DNA from: Eledone cirrhosa
Lineage: Eukaryota
NCBI GenBank assembly: GCA_964016885.1
Contig: CAXHJY010001767.1
Location: forward strand, 22,057 to 86,056
Length of the DNA stretch: 64,000 bases
Reading direction: 5' to 3'
This document shows positions 4,518 through 57,872 of this stretch, piece after piece. The notes below the pieces were generated by a model, which made no database searches, was not told the DNA's origin, and saw only the letters and a list, made by a program, of their open reading frames with translations. Within the stretch, counting starts at the first letter, position 1, and each line of letters starts with the position of its first letter. The translations under genes were made by a program, and so were the position numbers.

Positions 4518-4748
4518 TTTCGTTTCTGAATTTGTTTAGCAAGATTCTTTATCTGAAATCGTGTGTTGAAACCGATATTGTTATACTTTGGGAGGGTCAT
4601 GTTGCAATAAGAAACACACGCACCAGTTGCTTTCACTTCAATTTATTATATATTTATAAATTTATAAATTTACAAATCTACAAACTTATAAATTATAAAT
4701 TTCTGGTTGGTTGGTTGGTTCCACAACCAGATAGTTGTTTATATATAT

Positions 4749-4793
4749 AGTCATAGTCCTTTCGTCACACACTCTGTGACCTCTTCAGTGACT
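4749..4793 (-). ncRNA. Minimal type I hammerhead ribozyme motif
   Basis: Minus strand: agtca CTGAAGA g gtcac-agagtgt-gtgac GAAA g-ga-c TA tgact; stems I and II pair, one extra G after A9, minimal stem III. Confidence 0.7.
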
Positions 4794-4907
4794 GGGGATT
4801 CCTTTCTTCGTTTCTGTGCCTTTTCTTTCTTCTATCCTACGCCATTTTGTTTCTGTGTGTGTCACACACAGAAACAAAATGGCGTAGGATAGAAGAAAGG
4901 AATCCCC

Positions 4908-4952
4908 AGTCACTGAAGGGGTCACAGAGTGTGTGACGAAAGGACTATGACT
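4908..4952 (+). ncRNA. Hammerhead motif, A9G variant
   Basis: agtca CTGAAGG g gtcac-agagtgt-gtgac GAAA ggac TA tgact. Confidence 0.55.
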
Positions 4953-5332
4953 ATATATATAAACAACTATCTGGTTGTGGAACCAACCAACCAACCAGAA
5001 ATTTATAATTTATAAGTTTGTAGATTTGTAAATTTATAAATTTATAAATATATAATAAATTGAAGTGAAAGCAACTGGTGCGTGTGTTTCTTATTGGCAA
5101 CATGACCCTCCCAAAGTATAACAATATATATATATATATATATATATATATATATACAGATATATATATGTATATATATACAGATATATATATATATATA
5201 TATAATGTAGGAGGTGAGTTTTATTGTAGTACAATAAAGCAATGCAGATATCGGATAAGAAGCACTCTACAGTTTGTAGGACTGGAGTATACATAATATA
5301 AGATCAAAAGATGGTTAAAGGAGTTCCATGTA

Positions 5333-5400
5333 TTTTATTATGCGCATTTCAAAAACAAACATCATCATGCAATAATATTTGTTGTTTTCATCAGATAAAA
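5333..5400 (-). ncRNA. Type I hammerhead ribozyme motif
   Basis: Minus strand: ttttat CTGATGA [long AU/GU stem II] GAAA tgcgca TA ataaaa; palindromic stem III ATGCGCAT. Confidence 0.8.
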
Positions 5401-5554
5401 CAGGAGAACATGATATTAAGGCTAAAAAACACTTGTGGATAGTGCAGTTTTAAATCAACATATGTTGATAACATGATATGTTGATAACATGATATGTTGA
5501 TTTAAAACTGCACTATCCACAAGTGTTTTTTAGCCTTCATATCATGTTCTCCTG

Positions 5555-52980: not shown

Positions 52981-53354
52981 CTGTGTGGCGCCAATGGTAC
53001 TCTGTCACACGATCACTACTGATTACACTAAAGTACAAACATGTAGGTATATATCCAATGATTGTTGAAAATATTTCTGTAGAACTTAACTGAGAGCCTT
53101 GTCGAAATACAGGAAAACTATGTATATATATATAGTTCAAGAAAACAACAAAACAGAGATACAAATAGTCTTATTAGTTTCACGCTTTATATGGGAAATG
53201 GGGAAAGAAAGTTTGATGTGACAGGCTTCAGCCCTTCTTCAGGAGTACAAAAAATGGTTGGGATGGGAATACAAAGGATAGGATGATGATGATGATGATT
53301 ATATATATATATATATATATATATATATATATATATATATATATATATATATAT

Positions 53355-53697
53355 GGAGGCACATGGCTTAGTGGTTAGAACATTGGCCTTGCAGTCGAAA
53401 GGTTGTGAGTTCAATTCTCAGACCAGGTGATGTGTTGTTTCCTTGAGCAAGACACTTTATTTCACATTGCTCCAGTTTATTCAGCTGTAGAAATGAGATG
53501 ATAGGGACTGGGGTCCATATCATTTCACTGTAAAGTGGTCGTGGAGGTGCCACGGCAAAAAAAAAGCACCCAGCACTCACTGTAAATGAGGTTGGTGTTA
53601 GGAAGGGCATCCAGCTGTAGAAATCAAGCCAGAATCAGTTCCCGTCCCACCCTTGCCAGCAGGGAAAAGCGGACGTAAAATAATGATGATGATGATG
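53355..53697 (+). mobile_element. SINE family A
   Basis: Near-identical head, body and tail. Confidence 0.88.
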
Positions 53698-56600
53698 AAA
53701 TGAAAAGTATAGAAATTATTGTGAGCAAAAAGCCAACAGTATTTCATAATATATGACTATAGCGTCAAAAAAAAAAAAATATATATATATAGTTATGTTG
53801 GTTCTGCTACATCCAGTCCTAAATAAATGAGGTCGTGTAGGTGTCACGACAAAAAAAACACACAGTTCACGCTGTAATGTGGCCGTGTAGGTAACACGGT
53901 AAAAACCTCCCAGTCCACACTGTAAACAAGCAAGACAACCAATCTTGCTTTAAGTGGGACAATTCCCGTCTAAACCTATGCTAGCATGGAAGATAGACGT
54001 TAAACAATGATGATGATGATAATGATGATGATATATATATTATCATCATCATCATTTAACATCCATTTTCCATGAGTTGTCCTTACATTGTGAGACAAGT
54101 CAGATCAGGTGACTGTGCCTTGCTCATACAGAACTGTTTCTGGCTTGGTTTCTATAGCTGGATGCCAGTCCTAACACCAACCACATTTACAGTGATTACT
54201 GGATGCTATTTATTATGGCACCAAAACGACCAACTGACAGAGTGGGGTGGGTGCTTTTTGTTATATCACCAGCAAAACCATTTTACAATGTGGACTTCGT
54301 GCTTTTTGTTGTAACACCAACATGACCACCATTACAGAGTGGACTGGGTGTTTTTTGTAGTGTTACCAACATGACTACTTTACAAGGTGGACTGGGTGCT
54401 TATATATATATGCAAAACGTAAACAGAAACTACAATGAAAACAAAACAACACAGTACAATGAAGAAATGTATTAGTTTAACGCTTGATATAATAGGATAA
54501 GTCTTTACGTTTTGGACACTAGTCCATCATCAGAAAATACAATGAGAAGTAAAAGATGAAATAGAAAGACAGAAAGTAAGAAGAGAATAGATCAATTTCT
54601 TTTTGAAGAAAAGCATGTGTGCATTCGGTCAGCCACACACACACACACACACACACACACACACACACACATATATATATATAGAAAGAGAGAGAGTTGC
54701 TTGAGTATGATTTCGTGCTACGAAAAAATGGTAAACATACAGGTAATATATATACTTTAATACATGTTATTAGATAGAACTAGCAAGGAACTAGCAGTTT
54801 GAAAGAATGGAAACTACATGATGTTGCTATAGACAAGGAAACCTCTCTAATGTTGATGCCAAGATAAAAATGCATCAAGTACACTCTGTAAAATGGTGGA
54901 CAATTGTAGAGAGGCAGAGATAATGTAGGGTAGAGTGGATTCTTTAGTCTTGCCAAGAACGTGAGAATCTTTCTCATAGTGGTGGTGCCATGATAGAAAT
55001 ACACTCAAAACATTCTAGGACATCCAACCATTGAAGAAATCATAGCAATAATGGAATGTATAAGTAAGACCCTCCAAGACATCTATTTATTTGACTTCAA
55101 TCTTAACAACTTATCCAACACAGCCAACATAATGATGATGATGGGGATGATGATGATGAGTAGGGGGATGGTGATGGGGATGATGAGGAGAACGATGGTG
55201 ATGAGGAGGATGATAACAATGATGATGATGATGGTGGTGGTGATGATGACAATGATGTCGGTGATGGTGATGATGATGATGATGTCGATGATGGTGATGA
55301 TGTGGACGACAATAATAATGTTGATGATGATCATGATGGTGGTGATGATTATGATGGTGATGATGATGATGTACAACAACTAGGCTGTATATTCAGTAAA
55401 GTAGCTACACAGAAATCTCTCCAGATTTCCAAAGCTATATTTAAACATAAATAAATAAATAACTGAAAAGAAATATTTCTGCTGTGAAATGGTTTTAGTT
55501 GTGATGTGTAAAGCAAAGGAAAGAATTAGGTAGATGGAGAAAGGAAAAGGTACTGGAGAACTGGACTTTCTTCCAAGAGATATTGCAAGTACAACAACAA
55601 CAACAACAACAACAACAACAACAATAGAATGACTGACCTGTAATGGTTTATTTATGAAAATTTATGAAAAATGTATTTGGTTGTTTGGTTGTTGTTACTA
55701 TTACATACTGAAAACACGCATAGAGAGGAAACATGTAGAATTATATATATTTATATATATATATATATATAAATAAATAAATACACATATAAATATATAT
55801 GTGTATATATATATATTTATATATATAAAATTTAGTACAGCATCATCGAAGCTCTGGTTATATATATATATATACATATACACACACACACACATATAAA
55901 TATATGTGTGTATATATACATATATATATATATGTTATATATATATATATATATATATGTATGTGTATGTATGTATATATAATATATATATATACACACA
56001 CAGATATATATATATGTATATATATATTCCTTTTCAATCTCAAATCTTTGTTTATAAATGTACATTGTTTCATATATATAGTGTATTTATATAAGCACAC
56101 ACACACATATATATATAAAGGTGAACATGTATTTGTGTGTATGTATATATATATATATATATATATATATACATGCGCATGTGTATGTGCGTGTACATGC
56201 TCACTTTTATATATATACACGTGTGTGTGTACATACGCACCTTTATATATATATACATGTGTGTGTGTACGTGCTCGCCTACACACACACATATATATAT
56301 ATACATGTGTGTGTGTGTGTGTACATATGCACCTTTATATATATATACATGTGTGTGTGTGTGTACATGCTCGCCTACACACACACACATATATATATAC
56401 ATGTGTGTGTGTGCATGCTCACCTTTATATATATATATATCTATATCTATATACATGTGTGATTATGTGTACATGCTCACCTTTATATACACAGGGAAGA
56501 AGACAGTAAAAAGTCAATAAATCTAATTCCCATGACCAAACTAATCTGAAAATGGAATCTACCAAAATCAATAGAACTTTGCAAAAGTAGGAATTGGTCA

Positions 56601-57351
56601 GTTGATTGAACATTTACTGTACAGTTATGTACACATTTGCTACAAAGTCCAATTGCAGTGGACAGCTGTCTCTCAGCTCAATCTTCCATTATTTTGTACC
56701 TTTCCAAACGAAAGTCATGCTGATGTCATATTGTTTCATTGTCACCCTGTTACTATGGTAATAAGAGTTGGCTGTTAAGAGCATCCACCACAATACTGAG
56801 TGGTTTTATGTTAGTTCGACATATAAACATTAACAGCAGATCAGCCAAACTTTAATGACTGCTTATATAAGCACCATAAAATTAATCAATGGATTGTCTT
56901 TAGTAAACAAGTGGTCAGTGTGTATTAATGCCCACTGTTGTTTTAATGCCCAGTTAGCAAGGGTTGGATGGATCTACATAGACCAAGTTAGTACTGTGGG
57001 ACTACTGATCTCCCAGACAAACCAGGGATCTATCTATCTATCTATCCATATATATATATATATATATATATATATATATATATAGGAAAAGAGTCAGGAC
57101 CCCGACGGCTGAGCTCCGGCCATTTCAACAGCTAGATCTGAATTAAACCAGTAGTATTAGTATATATATATTAGCTGATTTAGCTTTAGCTTATCTCCCC
57201 CGAAATAAGGTTTTGGCTTAAGTTTGATATATTTCATTACTTCTCTGAGCAGATAATTTATTAATATATCTTATCCTTTCATTGAGATTTTAACGTATTA
57301 GAGAAAGTTAACTTTATAAAGTTATAAATTAATATATATATATAGATATAT

Positions 57352-57682
57352 CATTCATCATCATCATTTCATTTTACGTCCGCTTTTTCCCTGCTTGCAA
57401 GGGTAGGATGGGAACTGATTATGGCTTGATTTCTACAGCTGGATGCCCTTCCTAACACCAACCTCATTTACAGTGAGTGCTGGGTGCTTTTTTGCCGTGG
57501 CACCTACACGACCACTTTGCAGTGGAATGATTTGGACCCCAGTCCCTATCATCTCATTTCTACAGAGCAATGTGAAATAAAGTGTCTTGCTCAAGGAAAC
57601 AACACATCACCCGGTCTGAGAATTGAACTCACAACCTTTCGATTGCAAGGCCAATGCTCTAACAACTAAGCCATGTGCCTCC
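57352..57682 (-). mobile_element. SINE family A
   Basis: Reverse complement of the family A sequence. Confidence 0.88.
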
Positions 57683-57872
57683 ATATATATATATATATAT
57701 ATATATATATATATATATATATATATATATATATATATATATAATTCTCCTAACACCTGATAAAATTGCCTAGTCTTGTATCATAATTAGATGACAGAGC
57801 TGGGCCATCGAAATACGTACAGTGCTTTTGCGGAATTAAAATTCTGAAGTAAGTTTTCCAGTCCTTCAATCT

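Follow-up and report, generated by a model that had tools for sequence, protein, structure and literature searches.

Hammerhead ribozymes in a 64-kb stretch of the Eledone cirrhosa genome probably mark the ends of Penelope-like elements and one non-coding retrozyme-like family

Why does a 64-kb stretch of the genome of Eledone cirrhosa carry so many motifs that look like hammerhead ribozymes? This stretch (the window: 64,000 nucleotides, positions 22,057 to 86,056 of contig CAXHJY010001767.1 in assembly GCA_964016885.1) was originally predicted to contain about ten type I hammerheads, in several families of short non-autonomous, retrozyme-like inserts that were mobilised by a nearby relic of a Penelope-like element (PLE). 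We are confident of a different account: the window holds the 3' or pseudo-LTR (long terminal repeat) ends of at least six protein-coding PLE families, inserted in (TA)n runs, along with four inserts of a non-coding 317-bp family (family C). The features are listed in Table 1.

The type I fold is present at all 10 of the predicted positions. Eight of these motifs have a perfect CUGANGA core, one has the U3-A8 variant, and one has a point change. (We considered that the motif at 40776 might be a decayed core, and rejected this: the core is the compensated U3-A8 form.) The predicted cut between 36475 and 36476 also agrees with our reading of the fold. There are nine matches to the perfect core in the window, versus a mean of 0.04 and a maximum of 1 in 50 block-wise dinucleotide shuffles, and a narrower scan found 5 motifs versus 0.03 (60 shuffles), so the type I core (C3-A9, GAAA, UH, and stems I-III) is present above chance, as had been expected. 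An Rfam scan of the window, which had been suggested as a check, gave no matches at the gathering score, and the best 150 of the 504 entries from an E-value run were only microRNA-like palindrome noise.

Stem III is a perfect palindrome in families B, C, E, and H, and an imperfect one in A and D. In having a short palindromic helix III and a U3-A8 variant, the motifs resemble the minimal hammerheads that Cervera and de la Pena (2014, PMC4209133) described in metazoan PLEs, and so does their arrangement, as mostly single motifs from truncated PLEs with opposite-strand pairs 100-700 bp apart. The G10.1-C11.1 pair, which is highly conserved in those hammerheads, is often missing here: it is present in family A and in subfamily 3 of family C, but is replaced by A-U in B and in subfamily 1 of C, by G.U in D, and by U.U in E.

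We compared the window to itself with BLAST, which sorts the motifs into families and identifies three fold-back palindromes (4519-5123, 5205-5653, and 5823-6052). As predicted, (TA)n adjoins most of the element ends, except for the left end at 35984, the right end of family G, and the junction at 40965/40971, where a copy of family E meets a copy of family C head-to-head with no long TA run between them. Runs of (TA)6 or more make up 12% of the window, versus 5% of 40 stretches sampled from the 3.0-Gb assembly.

Families A, B, D, E, F, and H are the pseudo-LTR ends of protein-coding PLEs: elsewhere, they are joined to open reading frames (ORFs) with reverse transcriptase (RT) and GIY-YIG nuclease domains. 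This upholds the predicted connection to PLEs. The RT/GIY-YIG frame was found in 29 of the 30 best loci for family A and in 17 of 20 loci for family E (both counts include the window locus and the source of the query). The best matches to family B are all short copies; using a pattern for a tail end that is not followed by TA, we found that the tail leads to the start of an ORF in 14 of 19 distinct loci (six duplicates were dropped). For family F, the tail leads to an ORF in 12 of the 14 loci that we examined (of 30 returned), and four of the examined loci are one tandem array with a period of about 3,542 bp. Family D has a locus (L131) in which an 873-codon frame and a long 3' untranslated region (UTR) lie between two direct pseudo-LTRs, 4,973 bp apart, with an inverted partial pseudo-LTR upstream of the first. 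A search with the family D protein gave 150 scored matches, many in frames of over 800 codons, and the best named relative (43% identity) is from Argonauta. In family H, the GIY-YIG relic at 37393-38136 runs on into the UTR and the ribozyme at 39162, and is a 93% match to an RT-bearing locus. Family G has two alternative 3' ends in other copies, and we found no link to an ORF in 19 other loci. All of the inserts had been predicted to be non-coding, which holds for family C, but 40971-41214 encodes the C-terminus of the GIY-YIG nuclease of family E, and one end of family A includes the last 19 codons of its ORF.

To which PLEs do these families belong? The clade assignments rest on motifs because Pfam gave no match to our candidate Hydra-clade proteins and gave only matches below its cut-off for family A (RVT_1, E = 5e-4; GIY-YIG, E = 3e-4). 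Sequence searches of PDB found no match below E = 0.4. The translation of family A has RT and GIY-YIG domains, a CX4CxxC linker, a CCHH-type nuclease, and a DK(S)G motif. These motifs, together with its hammerhead and its tail, are those of Neptune/Nematis-type PLEs with a C-terminal endonuclease, so family A is probably of this type; the motifs do not choose between Neptune and Nematis.

Families B, D, E, F, and H appear, by their motifs, to be Hydra-clade PLEs as described by Craig et al. (2021, PMC8557442). RWK-like and DKT motifs can be read in the N-terminal part of all five translations, and D, E, and H have the CxCx5C linker and, in place of CCHH, a nuclease with CxxC and CxH around a conserved E and N. 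Like the published elements, these families have a canonical hammerhead near the 3' end, (TA)n targets, a tail, partial tandems, and inverted 5' copies. A single RT-endonuclease ORF between pseudo-LTRs, a tail, an inverted 5' copy, and a (TA)n target were found in the family D locus, the family F tandem array, and the element ends. Hydra-clade PLEs are typically under 3 kb (a tendency, not a rule), while families D and F are 4,973 bp and about 3,542 bp. The Eledone families are also far more abundant, and they include U3-A8 cores. The one octopus family listed in that study, Hydra-1_Obim, has a hammerhead that differs, by eye, from those in the window.

The family F insertion in the window carries only the 3' half of a U3-A8 hammerhead, because its arms begin inside loop II. 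A family F pseudo-LTR at another locus (L297) has a full hammerhead: the core is U3-A8, stem II has a long loop, and stem III is stable, at about 6 bp. Given this stem and loop, the family F ribozyme, unlike those of the other families, could act as a monomer. At two other loci (L283 and L289), the tail and 5' UTR of family F jump back to a short F segment; these loci resemble nascent deleted tandem derivatives. We also noticed a short AT-rich inverted pair within a long TA run at 23100-23475 of the window, with a similar end in locus L143, which is perhaps the 3' end of a further PLE family.

In contrast to families A, B, D, and E, which have protein-coding parents and are not tandem non-coding units, family C appears from its sequence to be a true non-coding retrozyme-like unit, and the only one among families A-E of the window. 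The units are arranged end to start and repeat every 317 bp. No ORF run-on was seen in the 30 best-hit loci, nor in 27 distinct insertions taken in order of position (30 loci, with three pairs merged). One 30-mer of the unit is matched exactly at least 1,597 times, and these matches represent copies or arms. Most copies have 1-2 units, an inverted 5' piece, an optional tail of about 26-37 nt, and TA flanks; there are also arrays of 3 and 18 units with intact motifs in consecutive units. Family C thus seems to fit the sequence definition of a non-LTR retrozyme (Cervera and de la Pena 2020, PMC7229834; bioRxiv 10.64898/2026.07.22.740005): it resembles the animal retrozymes in being a non-coding head-to-tail unit within 150-450 bp that carries a single type I hammerhead and occurs as monomers to multimers, with PLEs in the same genome. 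It differs in that it is mostly dispersed as copies of 1-2 units with a PLE-like tail and inverted arm, and in that we found no matching pseudo-LTR; Li, Clavereau and Pollet (2026; the same preprint) derive retrozymes from the pseudo-LTRs of PLEs. The enzyme that copies family C is likely of the same kind as that of the PLEs.

It is improbable, in our view, that an autonomous PLE, too rare to be sampled, has family C as its end, or that family C is a satellite that spread by duplication of DNA. Our search inspected just 57 of the 1,597 or more copies or arms, which leaves room for a rare parent, but end-to-start junctions recur in all subfamilies, and the tails, inverted arms, and TA flanks are marks of retrotransposition. 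In the 18-unit array, the identity of adjacent units (88.7%) is about that of distant units (88.6%), unlike what local homogenisation of a satellite would give.

We also saw arrays of family C that are joined, without a long TA run, to family A (L379:1605-7457 and L325:1178-1231) or to family E (window 40965/40971). These could be template switches between different PLE RNAs, but their small number and mixed composition do not point to any one partner. Separately, loci L222 (636-2400) and L228 (3104) contain an apparently non-coding hammerhead repeat with a 592-bp period, a U3-A8 core, three tandem motifs, and an inverted arm, which may be another retrozyme-like family.

Is the window unusual? 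The original prediction called its hammerhead density unusually high, but the window is ordinary for its genome. We scanned 40 systematic 10-kb stretches of the assembly (399.6 kb, with 27 of the stretches on the four largest contigs) and found 60 motifs in 400 kb, versus 10 in the 64-kb window (p = 0.51). The 60 comprise 45 with C3-G8 (shuffles: 0-2) and 15 with U3-A8 (shuffles: 1-3), while the two kinds of mismatched cores numbered 2 and 0, which is the level of the shuffles (0-3 each); thus, the 3-8 core pair covaries across the genome. With a narrower setting, we found 38 C3-G8 motifs, and smaller contigs were poorer (7 in 13 stretches, versus 31 in 27). Straight extrapolation would give 4.3-4.5 x 10^5 hammerheads in the genome. 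Because the smaller contigs are poorer, we put our estimate lower, at about 3-4 x 10^5 in the 3-Gb assembly, which is still far above the 2,000-9,000 of PMC4209133. In the 1.49 Mb of loci that we fetched, 344 distinct motifs fall into 45 clusters, 26 of which have at least two members. Family B has 10,697 exact matches to a 28-position pattern.

The covariation that had been predicted for the stems is also present. We chose 24 copies of family C, out of 55, to span the subfamilies, excluding truncated copies. In this set, 93.3% of cells are paired, versus 86.5% after shuffling and 26-39% in slid controls, and both sides have changed in 11 of 24 pairs (neither figure is corrected for relatedness of the copies). 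The 3-8 core pair is C-G in 17 copies, U-A in 7, and mismatched in none. These paired changes, in a protein-free element as well, argue that the ribozyme core, and hence cutting, is under selection in the source elements, including those of family C.

With these results, we consider it very improbable that the window is a concentration of at least five independent non-autonomous retrozyme families mobilised by the nearby relic. Family C does behave like such a family (0 of 27 insertions run into an ORF, and there are arrays of 3 and 18 units), and many copies of B and F are short with one common 5' boundary, as a non-autonomous family might be. But six families (A, B, D, E, F, and H) are joined to ORFs, the density is that of the genome, and there is no sequence link between family C and the relic. 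The relic, which had been placed at 37420-38140, belongs to a further truncated PLE with a hammerhead of its own. The original prediction itself held that its claim of novelty would fail if the copies were ordinary termini of PLEs, and A, B, D, and E are such termini, so the non-autonomous reading survives for the four inserts of family C.

Table 1. Hammerhead motifs and insertions in the window (positions are those of the window).
Feature	Position	Strand	Remarks
Family A fold-back insertion	4519-5123	.	two head-to-head 3' ends of a putative Neptune-type PLE; optional ~60-bp tail (4519-4578) on a single arm
Family A hammerhead	4749-4793	-	perfect core; predicted cut after 4754
Family A hammerhead	4908-4952	+	core A9 changed to G; likely dead
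Family B fold-back insertion	5205-5653	.	two short arms of a putative Hydra-clade pseudo-LTR; ~95-bp tail 5205-5300
Family B hammerhead	5331-5402	-	stem III palindromic
Family B hammerhead	5553-5623	+	predicted cut after 5615
Family F fold-back insertion	5823-6052	.	arms of a putative Hydra-clade pseudo-LTR; absent from original prediction
Family D	24340-25451	+	1.1 kb AT-rich 3' UTR and pseudo-LTR of a 4,973-bp putative Hydra-clade PLE
Family D hammerhead	25273-25318	+	
Family C	35984-36621	+	inverted 3' piece 35987-36067; core-deleted copy 36069-36300; full 317-bp unit 36301-36617
Family C hammerhead	36436-36481	+	predicted cut after 36475; 10-nt stem III palindrome
Family H	37282-39250	+	putative Hydra-clade PLE: inverted tail, broken GIY-YIG-coding relic 37393-38136 (internal stops), 3' UTR, pseudo-LTR
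Family H hammerhead	39162-39225	+	perfect core; absent from original prediction
Family A 3' end	39267-39735	-	begins in last 19 ORF codons (39722-39666)
Family A hammerhead	39417-39459	-	in 3' end 39267-39735
Family C subfamily 3	40613-40965	-	1.1 units
Family C subfamily 3 hammerhead	40776-40822	-	compensated U3-A8 core
Family E	40971-41447	+	putative Hydra-clade PLE: GIY-YIG C-terminus, 3' UTR, hammerhead
Family E hammerhead	41377-41416	+	
Family C subfamily 2	43686-44014	+	about one unit
Family C subfamily 2 hammerhead	43839-43880	+	
F-related short 3' end, half ribozyme	57087-57160	-	assignment based on a reading of the sequence; approximate right boundary
Family G old hammerhead-bearing end	57751-57873	+	
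Family G hammerhead	57752-57826	+	C3.A8 core mismatch; absent from original prediction

How were these insertions made? Our proposal starts from what we observed: family membership, linkage to an ORF or its absence, two 3' ends, inverted 5' arms, TA flanks, and covariation of stems and core. Families B, D, and F each have two peaks of 3' ends, and every peak lies just upstream of a bulged hairpin, RCUC...WWGAGY (BLAST ends are uncertain by a few bases beside TA). Hairpin 1 is at -161 to -187 from the ATG in six Hydra families and hairpin 2 is at -69 to -87 in five of them, so that five of the six families have two hairpins and the sixth has one. Two hairpins occurred in at most 1 of 1000 shuffles, and there were none in the in-ORF controls. 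We infer that the twin hairpin is a putative protein-binding signal.

In two families, the 5' ends are also sharp. In family F, 48 of 51 arms begin at -1 or downstream, and none of the 51 reaches more than 10 nt past the 5' boundary. In family B, 14 of 28 arms are at -1 to +2, and by hand count 43 of the first 100 matches stop at the boundary. Both boundaries lie on a TCA-T motif, which we take to be initiator-like; in the window, that of family B is near position 5492. Because many arms stop at this motif, we suggest that the short B and F inserts are copies of the 5' end of the transcript. Another candidate was the ribozyme cleavage site, which we rejected: no 5' ends pile up there in the families tested (C, B, and F), none of 48 starts in family C lies within 170-182, and the family F boundary is in loop II, upstream of the cut site.

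We propose that the GIY-YIG nuclease nicks (TA)n and that reverse transcription may then start at either of two sites within the RNA. In the Hydra-clade families, each start would be just upstream of a bulged hairpin that positions the enzyme. Two complementary DNAs joined by microhomology, or one folded back, could give the palindromes. In families B and F, the TCA-T boundary is likely the transcription start, and the short palindromes would be copies from the RT start to the transcription start. For the ribozymes, we predict cutting as dimers or with help from a protein. Cutting does not seem to be needed for these insertions, because the arms read through the cut site.

Much of this scheme has precedent. 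Published PLEs have a signature of tails, inverted arms, and partial tandems (PMC8557442; PMC3846280), and the Hydra clade prefers (TA)n targets (PMC8557442, section 11 and supplement). The Poseidon element PAc of Anolis has two internal RT starts that give the tail, AT-rich targets, and an uncleaved RNA template (Frangieh et al. 2024, PMC11167929). The starts of PAc are in an AC-rich stem-loop inside the ORF, whereas those proposed here precede two copies of a bulged hairpin in the 5' UTR.

Two other explanations of the short inserts deserve attention. First, the short B and F palindromes might be self-propagating non-autonomous sub-lineages (re-transcribed solo pseudo-LTRs) rather than one-off copies of the 5' end of a transcript. 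A sub-lineage would fit the 25 best B loci, which match the window copy at 98-100% identity and have in common a junction that is missing from the ORF-linked copies, but these loci were selected by a query that contained the junction. In a position-ordered list of B matches the junctions are diverse, with just 5 of 100 of the window type, and we think this explanation unlikely. Second, the 5' boundaries might be hot spots for RT stalling or fold-back, at short palindromes or stem II, instead of transcription starts. The B boundary is on a self-complementary hexamer, the F boundary is in the loop of a strong stem, and palindromes at inverted junctions have been interpreted as self-priming (PMC3846280). 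The absence of any F arm more than 10 nt past the boundary is a harder wall than stalling would give. Both boundaries coincide with what we take to be an initiator-like motif. Furthermore, the upstream repeat of Penelope contains an internal promoter (PMC2377424). Stalling is therefore a plausible alternative that we tend to doubt, and we favor transcription starts.

Several results weigh against parts of our account. The hairpin motif was defined on the same families that it was scored on, family E shows no 5' wall among 13 incidental arms, and the Hydra-clade calls, with no Pfam matches behind them, are motif-based. For family C, besides the uncorrected relatedness of the copies, no partner element was found via proteins like that of family D, cluster comparison, or chimeric junctions. 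The unit has no clear similarity to 25 other hammerhead clusters (from the 1.49 Mb), with two marginal scores (44, versus a shuffle maximum of 37, and 35 versus 34). Its direct neighbours are scattered (A 2, E 2, D 1, F 1, and H 1 of 68 clusters), a PLE protein match lies within 1.5 kb upstream of 1 of 58 C-cluster ribozymes, and family C lacks the Hydra twin hairpin. Also, the predicted fold of the family C monomer (-8.6 kcal/mol) is more stable than the active hammerhead (-4.6 kcal/mol). This predicted misfolding, together with a predicted self-duplex of the stem III palindrome at -13.6 kcal/mol, would be in line with the dimer model of PMC4209133.

What is new here? Except for family C, these are new members of known PLE clades, and links between hammerheads, PLEs, and retrozymes were already published. 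The genome-wide count, the twin bulged hairpins, and the sharp 5' boundaries are possibly new. We have moderate confidence in the following combination: 3-4 x 10^5 intact motifs from dozens of PLE families, which is several times the 126,247 of the ten-times-larger axolotl genome (PMC7229834; the axolotl motifs were counted with another, stricter descriptor, so the two figures are not directly comparable); a pair of bulged hairpins, previously undescribed, that fixes both RT starts; and mass production of solo pseudo-LTR palindromes by copying to the transcription start. The available part of PMC8557442 does not mention the twin hairpin, and the word ribozyme is absent from the available part of an octopus repeat annotation (PMC13282606). 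We found no publication on the twin hairpin, the 5' wall, or a hammerhead census of this host group in a search that left outside its scope subscription journals, Repbase, preprint supplements, and most of the supplement of PMC8557442. This genome is a rich data set for two open questions of PMC8557442 and PMC11167929, namely how the PLE tail is determined and whether the hammerheads of PLEs are of importance. The twin hairpin is a concrete candidate RNA signal for the start of reverse transcription in the Hydra-clade families, and family C offers a clear example of a retrozyme-like unit with the insertion marks of a PLE.

The window contains other repeats as well. At 46650-49445 (- strand) there is an open 931-codon frame of a long interspersed nuclear element, with endonuclease, RT, and PHD finger domains (Pfam), and many 3' fragments of it lie across the window. 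A 188-codon frame at 45034-45600 (- strand) encodes what we take to resemble a piece of a Helitron Rep/helicase. The inverted repeat at 57873-58543, with arms of about 240 bp and 78% identity, is probably an old DNA transposon or miniature inverted-repeat transposable element. Finally, 61172-63674 is a minisatellite with 50 copies of a 50-bp unit and 96% matches.

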